This document shows, piece by piece, positions 5,060 through 17,624 of a stretch of DNA of 17,624 bases (its first letter is position 1; every line of letters starts with the position of its first letter). Source of the DNA: Bugula neritina. Its lineage: Eukaryota; Animalia; Bryozoa. The stretch spans positions 1 to 17,624 of the forward strand of contig CAXIUT010000238.1 of NCBI GenBank assembly GCA_964035545.1, in the 5' to 3' direction. Below the pieces are notes generated by a model. It did no database searches. It was not told the origin of the DNA and saw only the letters and a program-made list of their open reading frames with translations. The position numbers were made by a program, and so were the translations under genes.

Positions 5060-5820
5060 ATGAAAATATCCTTCTTAGTAGCTATCTTTCTACTTTTAAT
5101 CGTATCAGCTAATTCACTAAGATTGCGTATTTTCATTTGTATTTAGAACCAAGTGAAGCACATTAACATTGGCATGATTAGCCTTGGCACGAGCATCATC
5201 ATGAAGATAATTAGCCTTGGCATAGATATTGGAACAGGCATTGGCATAGAAATGAAGATAATTAGCCTTGGCATTAATAGTGGCATAGACACTGGCATTA
5301 AAATTAAGATGAGTAGCCTTGGCACTAATATTGGCATTTTTACTGGATTTAGCATAGAAATGAAAATTAATCTTGGTATTAATTTTGGAATAGGTTTTGG
5401 AAATAACATAGAAATTAAGGTTAATCTTGGCACCAATATTGGCAAAGATATTGGAACTAAATTAAAAATAAAGATCATTCAACTTTACATAAAGAACTTT
5501 CCTCAAGAAGAAATCCTACAAAGAAAAATTAAATCGAAAAAGAATCCTAATCTAATATTTAAAAAGCTGAATCTACTTTATTGGAAAGAGTGGAAAAAGA
5601 TATAAAACAGTTGAATAAACTTGAAAAATTAATTAAATAAAACGATCAAAAAAAGAAACTTTCAGATCAGTCTGTCCTCAGAGATACTCCCTAGAAGAAT
5701 AAAATCAAAGTTTCAGATCAACCAGTCCTAAGAGATAATTCTTAAAACAATAAAACTAAGCTTTTTATTCCTATTATTCATAATTCAAAAGTATTTTCTG
5801 TTCCAAACAAGAAGAGTTGA
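5060..5820 (+). CDS. Secreted Trp/His/Glu-rich repeat protein, 246 aa; exons 5060-5126 and 5147-5820
   Basis: Signal peptide MKISFLVAIFLLLIVSANS, 20-nt intron at 5127-5146, then HEHWHDEPWHEHHHEDN-EPWHRYWNRHWHRNEDN-EPWHEEWHRHWHENEDE-EPWHEYWHFYWIEHRNEN-ESWYEFWNRFWKEHRNEG-ESWHQYWQRYWNE, a charged coiled-coil-like segment, and TGA at 5818-5820. Confidence 0.85.
5212..5475 (+). repeat. Coding tandem repeat, five degenerate units of 51-54 nt (starts 5212, 5263, 5314, 5368, 5422)
   Basis: Each unit begins TAGCCTTGG or TAATCTTGG and has TGG at codons 3, 7 and 11. A partial unit starts at 5179. Confidence 0.9.
5662..5763 (+). repeat. Two-copy 51-nt coding repeat in the C-terminus of the secreted protein
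   Basis: SDQSVLRDTPEKNKIKV and SDQPVLRDNSENNKTKL, with units starting at 5662 and 5713. Confidence 0.8.
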
Positions 5821-6537: not shown

Positions 6538-6810
6538 ATGGACTTTTCAAAACATTCAGAAGGAACGACTTCCGTTAAGGTACATCATCAACCTGGAGGG
6601 AAAAGCAACTTCTCTATTGGATGGGATAACAATGAACCAGCTCCCAAGAAGACCAACAACACCCAACCAGCCGTTGAACCAACAGCTCCTCAATCTAAAC
6701 CCAACAACATCGCAGGATTAGCACAAAAAAAAGAAGAAGAAGCACCCAACAAGACTTCAGTAAAGGTACATAATCCTCCAGGAGGAAAATCAAACTTTAC
6801 CCTTGGCTGA
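6538..6810 (+). CDS. Jupiter/HN1/SPIRAL1-like small microtubule-associated protein, 90 aa
   Basis: Two PGG motifs, TSVKVHHQPGGKSNFSIG and TSVKVHNPPGGKSNFTLG, joined by a low-complexity linker. This matches the S-x-[KR]-V-x-x-x-PGG-x-S-x-F/L motif of HN1/Jupiter and SPIRAL1. It ends in TGA and contains no TAR codons. Confidence 0.85.
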   Translation: MDFSKHSEGTTSVKVHHQPGGKSNFSIGWDNNEPAPKKTNNTQPAVEPTAPQSKPNNIAGLAQKKEEEAPNKTSVKVHNPPGGKSNFTLG

Positions 6811-8563: not shown

Positions 8564-9670
8564 ATGGAACAACCGCGAACAACCAAATATTTCAATACTT
8601 AGAGTCAAAATGAATCAAAAAAAAGAACTCTACCCATAGTTTAAGACTCTGATTATGAATAGCCAACTCCTGTTAAAAAATTAGCCCAAACATTCGAAAA
8701 CTCAATAGGTTTTTCAGACAAAGATTACTCCCATACAAGACCTTTCAACATATCTAACGACCACTAACCGCTTATCCCACCTGAAAGACCTCTACCCTTC
8801 AACTAAAACCTTCAATCTAGACGATCAACTCTTCCCAATCCTCCCGAAGGTAATCTAGATAGATACAAATCTCTATTGCCTATTTATCTGGCCAAACGTC
8901 TGAATCCTTCATATGAAGCATTGATAAAGGTGGCAGATATAACAGATAAGATACTATTCAAATTGAAATAGTTTTCATGGATGTAGGCTTTATCCAATAT
9001 TGAACTATCTATTGCAGAAAGAATGGATATTGATAATATCTAAGGAATTTTGAGGAAGATCAATTTTATAGTACCCGGATCTTATAAATTTTATAGAGAT
9101 CCTCTTAAAAATATGGTTGTTGGGTTTTCATATGGGTTCTAAAAATTATAAATGAGGAAGTATCTGCTTAGAAAGAAATTGTATTAATATGCATTGAGTT
9201 TTACTGAAGGATTTAAAGAAATCAATAAAATAGATGAGATTATACCTTAAAGAAGAGATTAGGTAAGAAAGACAGCTATATTTTTCAACAAAAAATCAAA
9301 AAAACATCAAAATACATAAAACAACCACAAACAATTTATAAAAGAGCTATAGCAAGAAATCCAAGACAAGTAGACAACTTTGATGTAAAAAGATCAATAA
9401 ATGCAAGACTATCTTTCCCATTAAGATATTCATAAATTCATTCTCCAGCTCGAATAGTTATTCCTTAAATACAAAGTAAAAAGCATATACAAGATGAACT
9501 TAATCGACAGTTTTGTAAATAAAAACTACTAGACATCCACAATAACAACTCTTCTCTCAAAAATAGAACAAACTGGTAGATATCTATATGCTAGCAGATC
9601 ATCGAACAATTCTATCATTTACACTTTGAAATAGAATTAGAAATAAATAGTTGTGCAAAGATTGACTTGA
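8564..9670 (+). CDS. CDT1: Cdt1-like DNA replication licensing factor, 368 aa, intronless
   Basis: The N-terminus MEQPRTTKYF resembles the Cdt1 PIP box (human MEQRRVTDFF) and is followed by a CDK site TPVKK. The middle block LNPSYEALIKVADITDKIL...KINFIVPGSYKF...KLEMRKYLLRKKLYEYA parallels the first winged helix (LPYKYQVL..MDTIV..QIKTVYPASYRF..LLQRRQIFSQKL). The C-terminal IHKFILQLEELFLKYKVKSIYKMNLIDSF parallels the MCM-binding winged helix. Similarity is by eye. Confidence 0.65.
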
Positions 9671-9736
9671 TTTGAGTATTGTTATTTCCATTACTAATAT
9701 CAACTATTAATTACAATTGATATTTATTAATTACCA

Positions 9737-10462
9737 ATGCTTCGTGTTTTAACCCGTCGTACTTCATCTCTGTTGACTCGTCCTTCTCAACCTTTTTGTA
9801 TTGGTGGTTTTGCTCCTGCTGATCCTCGTAAACATATAACTATGCAACATAACATCCACAACATGTATCTGGACCTCTATGAATACGGATAATATCCTGA
9901 TTGGGTCCATGTTTGTAGTGTATCTCCAAGAACCTATGAAAACCAAGTTATTGACATCATTGCTCAAAGCCTCAATGAAAAATATGTACTTTTTAATATC
10001 ATGCAGGGAACAAATATCAACTCAGAATTTATTAATTCTAAAAGATCAAGAAGTTGGAGTAAATTTTTAGCTAAAGATCTTAAAATTACGCAAGAATTTC
10101 ATTAAATCTATCCCTCACTTATTGGTAAACTAGCCTATGGAATATTTGTCAAAGAAAGTCGACTTACTTGGATAGTTGAACAACGAGCTCGTTTCTAGAT
10201 GAGTCTGAGTTCAATGGATGCCTAGACTCCACTAACTGTTGGAGATTTTATTGATCAATACAATTCCAATATTGAAACTTGTGTCTTGGCATCGAATTTT
10301 GGATTTGCGGCTTAGATCGATCAGGAGGATTCGGCTTTATAGAAGCATTAGGCTCAGCAAAGTGGATTGGCTGCTAATGGATCTCCAGGAATAGATGATT
10401 TGAAAAATTTGAGCAAAGAGAACGATAATTTCATCAACAGATTGATGGCTTTCCTTCATTGA
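9737..10462 (+). CDS. Mitochondrion-targeted protein of unknown function (241 aa, or 234 aa if 9986-10006 is spliced)
   Basis: Arg/Ser/Leu-rich, acid-free presequence MLRVLTRRTSSLLTRPSQPF, and an open frame to TGA at 10460-10462. GTACTTTTTAATATCATGCAG is a likely in-frame 21-nt intron. Confidence 0.75.
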
Positions 10463-10628
10463 AATCATAAATACATAAATTATTCTATAAAACAATATAT
10501 CTAGAGCTATTTATTGATTGCTAAAACAAACAGAACAATGAAAAAGTACAATATTATGCAAAATAACAGGTTATTAAAGGATATATTTGTATAATTAATA
10601 TGTTTTAGATGATATAAAGAATATTTGA

Positions 10629-11860
10629 TCATGATTATTTGCAAGCCTCTGGATCAGAAACTCTTCTTTATAATTAAGCCATATTAGCAAGTATATTATT
10701 ATGCATTTAATTAACTCCTGGAATAATGATGCTAAGTTCTTTCCAGAGAGGAAGTACAAATCCTCTGCAGAATCCGATTTGTCCTCCATAGAAAGTTTTA
10801 AGATCTTTATATTTATAAAAAACAGTAACATCTAATCCAGTATTTTTTTATCTAGTGGCAACCTACTAAAACTAGAAATTGACCAAAGAACTCCAATTCA
10901 TATAATTATTAAAGTCCAAACACGGATTGCCGATATCGCATCCATGGAATACTTATTCCATCAAAAACTATATAAATAAATAATTACCAAAACCCCCTTT
11001 CCATTAAATTTCTGAGCTTTGTGCATTATTTTCAAATGCTATAGATCTTTGAAGTGGGTGCTTACGTCGGTGGACAGTACCATTCTTGTTATTAGATGTC
11101 TTATATAGGCGGAGTCGAGAGATGTGTAGTTATTGAGGAAGTTGATGTTTTTGTCTTTTTTTAGGAGATTCCAGAATTAGTATAAATGCATTTTTTACAT
11201 TACTGCCATATTGCTACCCTATACTGCTAGTTGACTTTTGCTTTTAACTTCAAATGCATTTGTTGTTCCTGGATGTCTCAAATCATGCACCAAGGCTGAT
11301 ATAAATATATAAAACCACTATTTTTAATTTAGTTTTGTTTGCAGTTCAGGGCAGCGATTGTATGTCTGGAAAAGAAGCTATATTAAATAAAGATGTACCA
11401 GTAGCAATGAAAATGCGTGACTGAAATTGTGATAGGCAATAATATTGTAATTATCTGCTATTGTTTCTAGCAATTGGTCGATATTGAATGAATTTGCGAT
11501 GGTTTGGCGTTCGCTGTTGGCAGTGAGTATCAATTTAGAGAAATTTATTAGCTAAGAAATTGTGTATGATAGAACGGGGAAATCTAATTTGTTGAGATCC
11601 TATAAATCGACTATAGGTTTAGGAGGGGGAAAGTTTTGTAATCTGAAGCAGGATAGGGGAGGTAGGCTATCTTGGAGGTTATACCTGTTTTTGAAGGCTT
11701 GAACATCAGTGATGGATTTGTTGTGTTTTTATAGTTTAGACCATCTTGAACTTGGAGCTTTTTTGATGTGGGAGATCAGGACGAAGGAATCTTAGGGGAT
11801 GAGGTTGCCGTTGTTGGCTGATTTGCGGGATGGTTTGGGTTTATCGATGATCATACTCAT
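10629..11860 (-). CDS. Class I 3',5'-cyclic nucleotide phosphodiesterase (PDEase_I), 396 aa, catalytic domain only
   Basis: Motifs IAYHNFSHAF, SALVHDLRHPGTTNAF, AVMEKMH, MVLSTDVSTHF, FHGCDIGNP, NWSSLVNFEF and GQIGFCRGFVLPLW. Introns are 11378-11398 (21 nt; removal restores normal His-to-HD spacing) and 10968-10987 (20 nt, frame-restoring). Stop is TGA at 10629-10631. Confidence 0.93.
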
Positions 11861-12169
11861 TGCTTCTATTATTTATATATTTAGAAAAACGGAAAATAAC
11901 AAGAAATAAATAGTAAGTACTTGATCTTAAGCAACCACGCTTTTAATATTTTATTTTTGGTACTAATAGAGATAAAAGGTTATTTATTTTATGTTTATAA
12001 ATGAATAATTAATTTTTCTGATAAGATGAAACAAAAGTATAATAAAATCATAAAAATAAACAAAATGATATAATTTGAATATAAACTTTTGTGTTAGTCT
12101 TGAGTTGGTATTCAGAAAGAGTAATAGAACATTAATTATTGTATCACTATTTTAAATAATAAACAGAGA
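11861..12169. promoter_or_regulatory. Divergent AT-rich intergenic region, presumed bidirectional promoter (PDE / ART-TPR)
   Basis: 309 nt of very AT-rich sequence between two head-to-head ATGs. No specific element was identified. Confidence 0.4.
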
Positions 12170-15100
12170 ATGAACAAGTCTTAGTAGACTGATATCAGTT
12201 CAACTGAGTATACTTATACTGTAACTCGAGCCAAACCTAAAAGATATAGCTAATCTAAAGATCTAAAAGACAAACAATTGATTATTATCAACAACTCTAT
12301 GAACAAATAGGCATAGGAATAATAATAACTGTAAGATACTTCAATGGTAAATTTAAGGACAACATCAGGTAAAAAAAAATAAGATTACGTATAGCTACCT
12401 AAAATAAACTTTCAAGCTGCCATGCTAAATGATAAAAATAGAAGACCATCATAAGTGAACATCAAACTGCCACTAATTTATGAAGATTAAGACGATTCTA
12501 ACAATAATGGAACTAATGCTGTTCCATCTGATGAAGTATAAAGCGATTACCTTGATGAAATAGAATAACAGAAAGGTTAGTGGAATAATTGGAACATACA
12601 GCAGTTAAAAATAGCTACTCCTGCTCGAGATAATTATATCTAGTCGGAATATTCGCTTGTACCTGAATCGATATCTGATAGAAAAAAAAAATAAAGAAAG
12701 ATGTCCAGAGATGTCTAGAAAGAAATGTAGAGAAGATAGAGATAGAGAAATCTATAAATGGTTAGTAACTTTTTATCTGGGAAGGCATCGATGGTGTGGC
12801 TATTTGTGCTGGGAGATGAAATATAGGAAGATGAAATCGCTAAAGTTAAATAGATATATCGATAGTCAATAGATAATGATTATGAAATACCAGTATGTAG
12901 GAGTTATAAAGAAGCATGTCGGTTTTTGAATTTATCCAACTGTTTTTTCAAATTGGTTGTTGATCTTAATATCTCTGAGAAGTTTCTTTAGTAGTCCTAG
13001 AACAACAAGAATATAGCTTCTATTTATATCTATAATCCCTATCAGGTTTAGGGAATTAATCGAGCTTTTTAAATGAAAAGAGGAACAAAAAAAATCAAAG
13101 GGATGTTCAATGATTTACGAGAAGTTACTAAACAGGCTAAAGTATAGCTATAAAATGAGGCTAAATTTGTTAGAGTTGGGTAGGATCTTTAGACATAAAA
13201 AAATAAATTAAGATTTCCTAGTTTTATCACTCTTACTGGAAGCGATAGTACTGATGTAACTAACTATCGATTGTGTTTATTTGGAGCTTTGAAATTAAGA
13301 TAGAAGAATGAGAGATAGGCCTATTTGAAGTAGTTTACAGATATGGTCTAACTTAGATATAAAGATGTAGATAAATAATTGTAACATCTGATAGAATATA
13401 AAAGAATTGATCATCTAGGCTAAAATACAGAATAAAAGATGAGAGAAATCTTATCATTTTACGTGAAGTAAACTTTTTATTATGTTTTAACTAATTCTAT
13501 ACTGAGGTTATCGAGAAGTGCATAAGAATTTAGGCCGTGCACTATTCCTTTCAACTAGACCTACCATGCTATTAAACATTTTTATCTTAGAAGTCAGAAA
13601 TAGGGTAAAATATCAAATAATATGATCGTATATCGAGGAGCTAAATTACGTAACAGTGATGTATCATCTTTATCGATAGGTAGTTTCGTATAGTTGCTTG
13701 GTTTTACTTCAACATCATTGAAAAGATCTGAGGCATAGAAATTTATGGATGGAGATTCTTATTTAATAGAAATACATATATAGGAGGGTAGCAAATCAAG
13801 TAAATAGTCATAGAAATTGTATGATCATGGGTATGTATAGATAAATAGGTATGGGTTGGCATCTAAGGCATTTCAGAAATAGTAGTAGGTTCTTTTTAAT
13901 GCGTTAAATGTGTTTCAGGTGACAGGTTTAGATTTCCATTCTGCTGTTAGAAAAATAACTATGAAATATGGTGCTATTTTACCACTTCTTCGCTCAAAAC
14001 CACAAGAACTTAATCCTCATGATCGATCGGTTATGTAAAACTATCGATATTGTTTATAAACCTTTTAGTAAATATAAGATGACGGTGATGTTCTCATGAT
14101 AGCCCAGTAGCATAACCGATGTGTAGAATATTACCAGGGGAAGGTCGATAGAGGCGATGCAGATTTCAAGATATATGGGAAATTGGCTAATGCTCAGCTA
14201 TAAAGTGGTGATCTTGAGGAGGCTTATACTAATGCATTGAAATCTTTATAGTAATTAGAAGATACTTCCCAAAGTAGTTAAGAAATAAAGAAGACAGTGA
14301 ATCAACTTAAAAAGAATTCTAATATATTTGACTTCAAAGAAGATTATGTGCATTATTATCATAGTATTGATTCATGTGTACAATTGTTGAAGTAGCAGGA
14401 TTGGTTTTAGAGTGCAAAATTATATAAATAAAAGGCATAGAAGAAATTAAAAATATGTGATTTTGAAGGTTGTTAGCTAGATTTACAATCAAGTCGGAAA
14501 GTTATATAGGAGTATGCTGATTCATTTGAAATAAGACGTAAAAAAATATAAAAAAGATATTATTTAAGATCTTTATGTTGCGGATGTGTTAGAAATGCTC
14601 ATTAGATGTAGTAGCAAAAATAATTTTAGTTGATTAAAGTTTAAGAGGAATAGATTTAGTTTTAAAGAAGAAAGGAGGAAGTGCATTAACTTTATATATA
14701 GATATAAAATATTACTAGAGAATTAGCTGAATAAATTGGTAATAAAAAAATGTATAGTGATAGTTTGTAAGCCAGTCAAAAACATTTCGGACAGATGGAA
14801 AAGCAATCATTGCTTAATCCGATTGTTTAGGCTAAATTTGTTGCAATATAAGCTAGTACTTTTGACAAACATGATAATTTACCACAATTTTAGGTGAAAA
14901 TGGAATAGGCAATAAAAAAAGTTAAAAAACATGATCCTTTTCATAAAGATATTGGACAGTATTGCAACGTACTGGGCACCGAACGTCATGTGGCAATTAA
15001 AAGAAAGTTATTACTAACCCCTTTGAAAAATTATTAATCATATCAAGATATAAATTCAGAAGATAATGCTCCTATCATATAAACCGAAAAAAGACCAGCA

Positions 15101-16330
15101 TAGAAGTATAACTATGAAGAGCATGAGAAGTTGAGAGTGAAGAGTAAAGATGCATTGACTTAGGCTGCATAGAATATCGCATATAATAAAGGAAAGTAGA
15201 GTCCAGATTATTTATCAGTTAGAAATAAAATAGGATAACTTGATCTTGAAACTTCTAGGTTGTCAGAATCATAAAAATTGGTTAAGTAAACTTTGCAGTT
15301 CAAGATGGTTCGTTTTCATTCATAAGGTGCCAAATGCTATCTTTTGCTAACTAAAATATCACTTGCCAAGGGAGAGTTAAAGGTATCTTTTGTTAATTTG
15401 GAACATGCTTTCTAGATATTGAGAAATACTCTTTTGAAAGTTGATAATAGTCAATACAATTCGATTTTGTTGAACAATCCCTTATATATTGACATAAACC
15501 TCCACAAAGCTAAAATATTCAACCGTCAGTTGAAACACGACCTCGCTTTGAAATAGCTAAAAGTTCTCAATAAAATAGCATAGATACGACGAGATAGACA
15601 CCACAATAGTACGATACTAGCCTCTGTTCTTGAATAGTAGGCACAGATATAACTTTGTACTGGCTAGACTGACACTTTCGAATAAAAGTTGTTATAGGCA
15701 ATACAAATAAGATAGATTTAGATGGGAAAATACAATATTCCTAATGCTATAGCATATTCTAATCTTTTCAAATTTATGTTGAATCTTCAGGACAAAGAAA
15801 TGGCAATGGAATATCATTTGAAGGCTACATAGATATTTTCTCGTTTTCCGGCTGATCATCCTAACTTCTGGGTCATTCATCTTTCCAATGCTCTAGTCTA
15901 TTTGAATGAATAACAATATCATAGATGTCTATAGTAGTTATAAAACTGTTTGAAGGTCACTCACTATCGATATAGTTTGAACCATATCATTACCCTAAAG
16001 ATAAACTTGCAATTTGCCCAGATGTTGCGAAAGATGTAGAAAACAGAGCGAGCAATATCGGTGCTTCAATAGTTAGAGGGCACAGTGCTTAGATATCTAA
16101 AATAGAAATAAGAAAACGGGTAGAAATTATAACGAGAAACAGATGACTAGAAATATCCATTATTAAAAAACGTATACAAGCAGTTGAAAGATATCCATCA
16201 GGTGGATGAGAATTAACCTGGCAGTCGGACATAGAATAATTTATTGGAGATGCAAAAATATGAGAAGCAGTTGAAAGATATGTAGGGGATGTTGAGAGGT
16301 AGTAATGTGAATGAAATATAGAGAGGTTGA
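12170..16330 (+). CDS. Large mono-ADP-ribosyltransferase (R-S-E / ARTC class) with C-terminal TPR-like repeats, 1386 aa, intronless
   Basis: A 4161-nt frame with no internal TGA. ART motifs are ILSFYVKETFYYVLTNSILR, MIVYRGAKL (R489, 13634), GFTSTSLKRSEAEKF (S514-T-S516, 13709-13717), YLIEIHI and FQKEEEVLFNALNVFQV (E571-x-E573, 13880-13888). Downstream helical repeats include IYGKLANAQLESGDLEEAYTNALKSL and AIAYSNLFKFMLNLQDKEMAMEYHLKATEIFSRFPADHPN. Confidence 0.88.
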
Positions 16331-16409: not shown

Positions 16410-16731
16410 ATGTCTCAGGTACATGTTTTTTTAGGTAGGGTGGAGTGTAAAGCAAGAAATAATAATTCAAAAAGTATCTAGAGAAGACGGGAGCTGTAGA
16501 TCAGCTCACTAAAATACTTGTTGACTTATATGAGGAGCCTGAAAAACCAGGAAATGCTGTTGATTTTATCAAAAGGCGGCTGGGAGGGGGAGAGGAAATC
16601 GATGGGGGACGACTGAAGCAGGAATACGAGTCGGCCAAGCAAGAAAACGAGAAGTTGAAGAAGCAGATAAAAGATGTAAAAGATGAGGTATATAATAAGT
16701 GATGTAGATTGAGAAAAGGAAGAATTTGTGA
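16410..16731 (+). CDS. MYCBP: c-Myc-binding protein homologue (MYCBP/AMY-1; FAP174-like ciliary protein), 93 aa
   Basis: ESKKEEFKKYLEKTGAVDQLTKILVDLYEEPEKPGNAVDFIKRRLG matches the family pattern SKREQFRRYLEKSGVLDTLTKVLVALYEEPEKP. Predicted 20-nt introns are 16419-16438 and 16688-16707. If the second is retained the stop is at 16700-16702. Confidence 0.92.
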
Positions 16732-17499: not shown

Positions 17500-17507
17500 C
17501 TTATTTA

Positions 17508-17624
17508 GGGGTTGGGGTTGGGTTGGGGTTGGGGTTGGGGTTGGGGTTGGGGTTGGGGTTGGGGTTGGGGTTGGGGGTTGGGGTTGGGGTTGGGGTTGGG
17601 GTTGGGGTTGGGGTTGGGGTTGGG
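17508..17624. repeat. Right telomere, (TTGGGG)n
   Basis: Tandem T2G4 repeats to the end of the window, G-rich strand 3', complementary in orientation to the left telomere. There is one G5 variant. Confidence 0.99.

Follow-up and report, generated by a model that had tools for sequence, protein, structure and literature searches.

The 17,624-nt contig CAXIUT010000238.1 of the Bugula neritina assembly GCA_964035545.1 (hereafter the window) carries, at positions 12170 to 16330 of its forward strand, a real ciliate gene that is concealed by a variant genetic code in which TAA and TAG (together TAR) encode glutamate. Its product of 1386 amino acids (aa) combines a receiver-like fold, an ADP-ribosyltransferase (ART) domain and a long solenoid resembling tetratricopeptide repeats (TPR), all three folds being predicted. 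We lean, with slightly better than even confidence, towards a regulatory role for the protein as a cytosolic, probably membrane-tethered arginine mono-ART whose solenoid would choose a conserved self target and whose pseudo-receiver would serve as the switch.

A ciliate gene concealed by its genetic code

12170..16330 (+): whole ART gene, 1386 aa in NCBI translation table 30, with receiver-like, ART and TPR-like solenoid parts
1-87 and 17503-17624: telomeric repeats at the window ends, C4A2 at the start and its complement G4T2 at the end

The open reading frame (ORF) runs from ATG to TGA through 1386 codons, with 52 TAA and 77 TAG in frame. A preliminary description of the window had stated that it is invisible in the standard code, and under table 11 the longest open piece is indeed 49 aa. 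TGA occurs 19 to 54 times in each of the remaining five frames of the span, and the longest TGA-free run among 500 base shuffles had a median of 215 and a maximum of 584 codons, compared with the 1386 observed. The motifs picked out in that description lie where it placed them (MVWLFVLG at 12791, R489 within VYRG, S514-T-S516 and E571-E572-E573), and the three catalytic-loop glutamates are written TAG TAG TAG. No indels separate the ORF across three sequencing runs, and a single contig of run X1, which may be the source sample, covers 9596-14865, linking the ART gene with its upstream neighbours.

Homologues were collected with a DNA pattern that allowed TAR for Glu, giving 32 metagenome loci of which 28 encode homologues; L003, L006, L014 and L026 did not match the protein and were set aside. 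The description of the ORF as intronless agrees with the absence of any insertion of at least 4 aa relative to the orthologue in L022, and it appears correct as far as that comparison reaches.

In the tyrosine aminotransferase of the window, TAR lies opposite the Glu of the LADxIY motif in all four PDB alignments shown, and it lies opposite Glu at several positions of GCP2 as judged by eye. TAR mostly faces Glu in 27 of the 28 homologous loci, L021 being uninformative, and the facing orthologue cells are Glu for 40% of TAA, 44% of TAG and 46% of GAA codons, while TAA and TAG face Gln in 6-7% and Lys in 10-12% of cells. The codons of the catalytic ExE motif in orthologues are a mixture of GAA, GAG, TAA and TAG, and the strain differences listed include three TAA/TAG and two TAR/GAR swaps. 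A glutamine code is ruled out by the aminotransferase alignments, the catalytic-loop codons in the loci and the orthologue cell counts, and a split code of TAA for Lys and TAG for Glu is excluded because both codons act like GAA, unlike CAA or AAA. Since the reassignment of UAR to Glu arose once among ciliates, in Peritrichia, according to the relevant passages of PMC10553269, the host is probably a peritrich. With telomeric repeats at each of its ends, the window is likely an entire macronuclear chromosome of 17.6 kb that carries several genes; the others are ordinary eukaryotic ones, among them tyrosine aminotransferase, GCP2, a phosphodiesterase and tRNA-Gly.

Such genes are a trap for annotation, as the standard code shreds this one and the Gln code converts its catalytic loop to QQQ. 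The close library matches are only fragments of 45-161 aa. One fragment of the family, P0019, has a catalytic loop reading QQQ and probably comes from a TAR=Glu gene that was translated with the Gln code.

Domains of the encoded protein

12170..12754 (+): charged, poorly conserved N-terminal region, residues 1-195 (composition, orthologue identity)
12779..13159 (+): receiver (CheY-like) fold, residues 204-330 (beta/alpha pattern of the model, VIA)
12962..12964 (+): D265, end of beta3, placed by model secondary structure
13202..13429 (+): conserved helical subdomain ahead of the ART core, residues 345-420 (model)
13430..13975 (+): ARTC-type ART domain, residues 421-602 (profile, Foldseek, VIA)
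13634..13636 (+): R489, first triad residue, in 58/59 covering library hits and 28/28 loci
13709..13717 (+): S514-T-S516 motif; S514 in 54/54 covering library hits, S514 and S516 in 28/28 loci
13880..13888 (+): E571-E572-E573 (ExE)
13976..16297 (+): all-helical TPR-like solenoid, residues 603-1376 (AlphaFold, Foldseek, Pfam)
14462..14668 (+): long hairpin of two helices, residues 765-833, tipped by a hydrophobic Cys cluster (802-806)

Residues 204-640 were modelled with AlphaFold from 55 rows (predicted local distance difference test, pLDDT, 87.7; predicted template modelling score, pTM, 0.72) and residues 596-1386 from 16 rows (pLDDT 84.9, pTM 0.82). The resulting layout of receiver, ART and helical repeats is the one that the preliminary description had proposed, and both the models and the structure searches agree with it.

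The ART domain is the best supported of the three parts. A profile of the region finds Vis in the PDB at E 6e-13 together with other R-S-E enzymes, Foldseek places ExoS at E 1.2e-6 against the 204-640 model, and VIA structural comparison gives Z 12.9 for Vis, 12.8 for 6drh and 12.7 for ART2.2. The arginine, the STS motif and the catalytic glutamate E573 fall in order on the strands of the model, and the profile alignment to Vis agrees. The Pfam ART match in this protein lies below cut-off (E 0.0017), and neither a word-index search with residues 200-640 nor a single-sequence PDB search returned a match. A library search with residues 204-640 over 1.84 billion representatives gave 118 hits, of which 117 were kept and P0084, a repeat, was left out. 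ExE is kept in 26/26 covering peritrich loci and 36/39 covering library hits, E571 alone in 40/41 library hits. The R / STS / ExE triad claimed from the sequence thus stands, and by predicted fold and motif the enzyme belongs to the ARTC (R-S-E) class with ExE. Arginine specificity would follow from the ExE rule of known families, as the motif marks arginine-specific ARTs in the passages of PMC3102197 that treat it. The helical stretch leading into this domain is also well kept (62% orthologue identity over residues 331-420).

The receiver part, taken as the first 140 residues of the 204-640 model, matches 2qzj by VIA at Z 9.8 with a root-mean-square deviation (rmsd) of 3.3 over 117 aligned residues, many receivers being tied. 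D265 sits at the end of beta3, which we take to be the position of the phospho-acceptor Asp in receivers. That position is Asp in 20 of the 24 covering loci and Asn in the other four; 60 of the 68 distant-family rows have Ser there. Receivers also carry an acidic pair after beta1, a Thr or Ser after beta4 and a Lys after beta5; the orthologue alignment is variable after beta1, has Tyr-Asn after beta4 and shows no conserved Lys after beta5. On this model residues 204-330 are likely a pseudo-receiver.

The N-terminal region, described earlier as acidic and disordered, is highly charged, with 47 D/E and 33 K/R within the first 200 aa, and its mean orthologue identity is 27%; composition and divergence make disorder likely. 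A hydropathy scan reaches at most 1.25 over 19 residues and reveals no hydrophobic N-terminus and no transmembrane stretch, in agreement with the claim that a signal peptide is absent, and for this reason the enzyme should be neither secreted nor an ecto-enzyme.

Beyond the ART domain, the model stacks helix pairs into a superhelix. Its top Foldseek matches are the Ski complex, IFT-A, Ctr9 and OGT, all at high rmsd, with no close template. Pfam TPR_12 matches residues 1239-1301 at E 1.2e-6 with 29 bits, just under the 30.1-bit cut-off, and exceeds the cut-off in the orthologues L022, L018 and L032. From this solenoid projects the hairpin (modelled helices 765-803 and 809-833), whose tip holds three to four cysteines here and in six distinct orthologues of the subfamily to which this gene belongs (A, below), and one to two in L001 and subfamily B. 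The cluster is a candidate site of S-palmitoylation and would likely serve as a lipid anchor. The Cys-tipped hairpin and D265 are two features that go beyond the preliminary description.

Orthologues, neighbours and selection

10629..11860 (-): cyclic-nucleotide phosphodiesterase (PF00233), lying head-to-head with the ART gene at a distance of 310 bp
16410..16702 (+): small coiled-coil gene downstream of the ART gene, likely 20-nt intron at 16419-16438
L023 7521-9926, L032 5655-8192, L011 1953-4331, L004 2348-4045 (all -): membrane-protein neighbour of subfamily B

The orthologues are 43-61% identical to the protein across nearly its full length. A quick tree, built without prokaryotic rows and with loosely placed deep branches, separates subfamily A, which includes this gene (support 93), from subfamily B (support 97), and a few further copies are seen among the pattern loci and run contigs. 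Codon habits pair A with B copies (L009/L012, L024/L011, L002/L004), which suggests one copy of each per species, and the solenoid is colinear over its full length between the two. These sequence comparisons portray the A and B paralogues as old and the family as small. Frame breaks just after the ART domain (L004/L016/L023, L012, L027) and within the solenoid (L001, L028) probably mark introns at subfamily-specific places.

Neighbours of the gene in the window recur in seven loci, representing five distinct genes. The head-to-head arrangement with the phosphodiesterase is kept in L005/L022/L031, L020 and L009; the gene at 9737 recurs near ART orthologues in L020 and L022; and the small downstream gene, presumably c-Myc-binding-protein-like, has an 85-87% identical counterpart downstream in L002 and L022/L031. 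Subfamily B has its own upstream neighbour, kept in L004/L023, L011 and L032, a conserved protein of about 800 aa that crosses the membrane several times and has no real Pfam match. L001 and L015 have 1.9-4.7 kb of sequence upstream but none of the window's neighbours, and may represent a third paralogue, and L008, L019, L021 and L024 have no flanks and are uninformative on synteny.

Between strains the protein hardly changes. Among the 40 strain differences listed, of 64 in all, 36 are silent (ratio of replacement to silent polymorphism, pN/pS, 0.03; p 2e-20), and the helical part accounts for 29 silent differences among 32 listed. Silent versus replacement differences between near-identical loci are 9/5, 7/0, 8/0, 3/1 and 2/0, with exceptions of 2/3 and 0/1. 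Between species pS is saturated at 0.83-0.93 and pN is 0.26-0.37. Mean orthologue identity is 55% for the receiver, 67% for the ART domain and 38-57% for solenoid segments, with one loop at 18%. Against L022 the ART protein is 61% identical, the phosphodiesterase 55-57%, the gene at 9737 56-68% and the small downstream gene 87%, and residues 1001-1200 of the solenoid reach 72-80% compared with 69% for the ART domain. These sequence data point to strong purifying selection that includes the repeats, at a rate about like that of neighbouring genes.

Several other features of the window were noted. In the downstream gene, 16419-16438 is likely a 20-nt GT-AG intron after Met-Ser-Gln, and the counterpart at L002 2714-3253 (-) has seven extra residues at that site. 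These resemble a 21-nt intron that keeps the reading frame, so very small introns of this kind can go unnoticed within long ORFs of TAR=Glu ciliates. At 8564-9670 (+) lies a 368-aa gene with no Pfam match that is 30% identical to L018 10316-11692 (-), near an ART orthologue. A putative 184-aa frame at 5060-5614 (+), with a signal-peptide-like start, Gly/Ile-rich imperfect repeats and no Pfam match, is possibly a secreted structural protein on its sequence, and run X3 carries a 3-nt insertion at 5173 inside it. The 90-aa protein at 6538-6810 (+) has two PGGKSNF repeats and a weak DUF4057 match (E 0.014), and we take it to be SPIRAL1/HN1-like.

Function, distant relatives and known systems

In the reading that we favour, the ART domain would use NAD+ to attach a single ADP-ribose to an arginine in a self protein, as a regulated signalling step. 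The solenoid would bind a partner or substrate that is itself conserved, and palmitoylation of the Cys-tipped hairpin might tether the enzyme to the inner membrane face. The degenerate receiver could be a switch that works by allostery or docking and involves no classical phosphotransfer. A protein that regulates the cell itself is likelier than a fast-evolving weapon because the neighbours are kept and almost no amino-acid change is tolerated.

The preliminary description had proposed a sensor-effector for defence or signalling, had raised the possibility of horizontal transfer or a patchy ancient family, and had pointed to a resemblance to a poorly characterised family of bdelloid rotifers. 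That resemblance holds, as the same layout is found in bdelloids: the receiver/ART/TPR order recurs in P0060 and 87 further hits, the weakest of which include two named bdelloid proteins. The peritrich ART domain gives an hhalign profile match of 98.3% (E 2.5e-14) with the bdelloid-like group, and the domains are homologous and in the same order as in this superfamily, the receiver link being indirect, through the P0060 family (92%, E 5e-7, then 98%; direct E 0.047). Transfer, on the other hand, finds no support, given syntenic orthologues and no confirmed bacterial or viral close relative in short-pattern scans. Such scans of GTDB genomes gave 58 and 20 matches, none confirmed, and those of viral contigs gave 0, 0/101 and 1/143. 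The single viral match, at 1-597 of the phage-type contig L033, is an R-STS-ExE ART of generic type with a capsid-like gene nearby; it is 34% identical over 69 aa and was rejected as a specific relative. No ciliate-named protein occurred among 30 looked-up hits, so that a named non-peritrich ciliate member is lacking there, and a profile search of longer proteins gave seven hits, two named, both rotifer. The quick tree does not join peritrichs to rotifers, and a patchy old family fits as well as transfer. A single-copy, vertically inherited, slowly evolving orthologue across ciliates had been named as what would contradict defence and transfer. Synteny, rate, purifying selection and the lack of a close bacterial or viral relative in the scans correspond to much of that picture; the paralogues, and the recovery of the gene from TAR=Glu ciliates only, do not.

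Fast-evolving defence fares no better, as the hallmarks of an arms race, diversifying repeats and an unstable locus, are absent. A conserved immune sensor-effector is a more serious alternative, which we nevertheless consider rather unlikely: its solenoid would recognise an invariant foreign molecule or guard a host protein, and the freed ART would modify an invader protein or arrest the cell. The toxin-type fold, the effector-plus-repeat layout, the expansion of that layout in rotifers and the P0060 family, and the paralogues in peritrichs would all suit it, and stable synteny, a pN/pS of 0.03 that includes the repeats, and a small old family evolving like its neighbours argue the other way, as does the colinear solenoid of subfamilies A and B, whereas longer members of the expanded family vary from about 570 to 1535 aa, some maybe partial. 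Several observations weigh against the self-regulatory reading. A conserved immune sensor can likewise be under purifying selection, and the relatives are expanded, with 88 hits for P0060, rotifer clusters of 52-846 members and several P0060-family pairs whose longest contigs are equal in length, which suggests tandem copies. A copy about 80-85% alike in patches recurs in three runs at similar depth and is closer than any orthologue over 13052-13377 (orthologues 60-73%); it is either a younger paralogue or a co-occurring relative. The near-identical pair L022/L005 has more replacement than silent differences, 24 of the 64 strain differences lie outside those listed, and the solenoid is on average less conserved than the ART domain. 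The DNA pattern picks out members in which one particular motif is retained and would miss paralogues that evolve faster, and more divergent fragments exist (e.g., P0014, P0026, P0045).

Two further alternatives were weighed. Were the protein a true two-component output, a histidine-kinase relay would phosphorylate D265 and switch the ART on or off. The receiver fold, an Asp at the beta3 end in most loci where the distant family has Ser, and the head-to-head phosphodiesterase lend this some colour, but the remaining receiver hallmarks are not conserved, and two subfamily-B genes have Asn for Asp with the full triad intact, which leaves it very improbable. Scarcely more probable is that the ART mainly hydrolyses NAD+ or modifies a nucleic acid or small molecule; fold alone cannot tell the target class and some R-S-E enzymes act in this way (PMC8120803, PMC3102197, in the passages concerned), but such enzymes carry QxE and the peritrich family keeps ExE.

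Returning to the regulatory reading, we tentatively propose, as a wider and distinctly less secure idea, that the receiver-ART-TPR layout defines an ancient, undescribed class of eukaryotic arginine ARTs, cytosolic and tethered to membranes. The class would have been amplified as immune sensor-effectors in rotifers and other lineages and domesticated as a one-protein signalling switch in peritrichs, where the receiver Asp or the solenoid would take up an input that activates a toxin-type enzyme against a target of the cell itself. Eukaryotes have recruited toxin-type mono-ARTs several times (PMC3417536). Lipid anchoring may be shared by the whole superfamily, because 28 of 80 distant-family proteins begin Met-Gly, a likely myristoylation signal.

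Among characterised proteins, the ART domain resembles Vibrio Vis (4xzj), Serratia Tre1 (6drh; name from PMC8120803), ART2.2 (1gxy) and HopU1 (3u0j) at Z 12.3-12.9 (rmsd 3.6-4.1, 169-198 aligned), and shares the ART fold and R-STS-ExE triad with arginine ARTCs including Pseudomonas ExoS (6gnk). It is only 13-21% identical to Vis, Tre1, ExoS, ART2.2 and HopU1, and shares its chain with a receiver fold and a solenoid of 770 aa. Unlike those of the arginine ARTC enzymes compared, the peritrich gene is chromosomal, syntenic and under purifying selection, and unlike vertebrate ecto-ARTCs its product has, by the hydropathy scan, no hydrophobic N-terminus of the kind expected for a signal peptide with glycosylphosphatidylinositol anchoring or secretion. 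Its receiver has the fold of CheY-family receivers (about 115 residues aligned at Z 8.8-9.8), and beta3 ends in an Asp, without the conserved acidic pocket, Thr/Ser and Lys. The Tetrahymena protein BUBL1 is an intracellular ubiquitin-Hint-ART protein with an arginine ART label and a different architecture.

The nearest relatives in layout are the bdelloid proteins Rotaria P0204, auto-named 'Nephrocystin-3', and Didymodactylos P0203, with the order receiver-like, helical, ART and TPR; Adineta P0241 is a further uncharacterised bdelloid protein of the compared group. In the Atlas, P0204 falls among the rotifer clusters, which carry the ART Pfam on 25-37% of members where named. The bdelloid proteins show about 20-25% identity, have canonical TPR_12 repeats where the peritrich repeats are degenerate, carry Ser at D265, show no hairpin insert and lie far away on the tree. 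The metagenomic family of P0060, P0039, P0058 and about 80 more, likely eukaryotic, has the same domain order, with ExE in 76 of 77 parsed rows, but is open under the standard code, has many copies and a Cys-rich insert after the ART, and in 28 of 80 proteins has the Met-Gly start instead of an internal Cys cluster. In another member of the distant family, P0191, a protein kinase domain precedes the ART and TPR parts.

No description of a receiver-ART-TPR peritrich family was found by title and abstract opening, though prior mention is possible, and the passages of PMC3102197, PMC9027952, PMC8120803, PMC10553269, PMC3417536, PMC3482391 and PMC10809525 do not describe it. In reviews (PMC3102197, PMC9027952), eukaryotic ARTC enzymes are described as extracellular or located in the endoplasmic reticulum, with no intracellular arginine-specific ART characterised by 2010 and the source of mammalian intracellular arginine ADP-ribosylation unclear in 2021. 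The peritrich family leaves that mammalian question unanswered, but it provides naturally occurring and conserved ExE enzymes that lack a signal peptide and have regulatory domains built in, and endogenous cytosolic arginine ADP-ribosylation therefore becomes testable in a protist.

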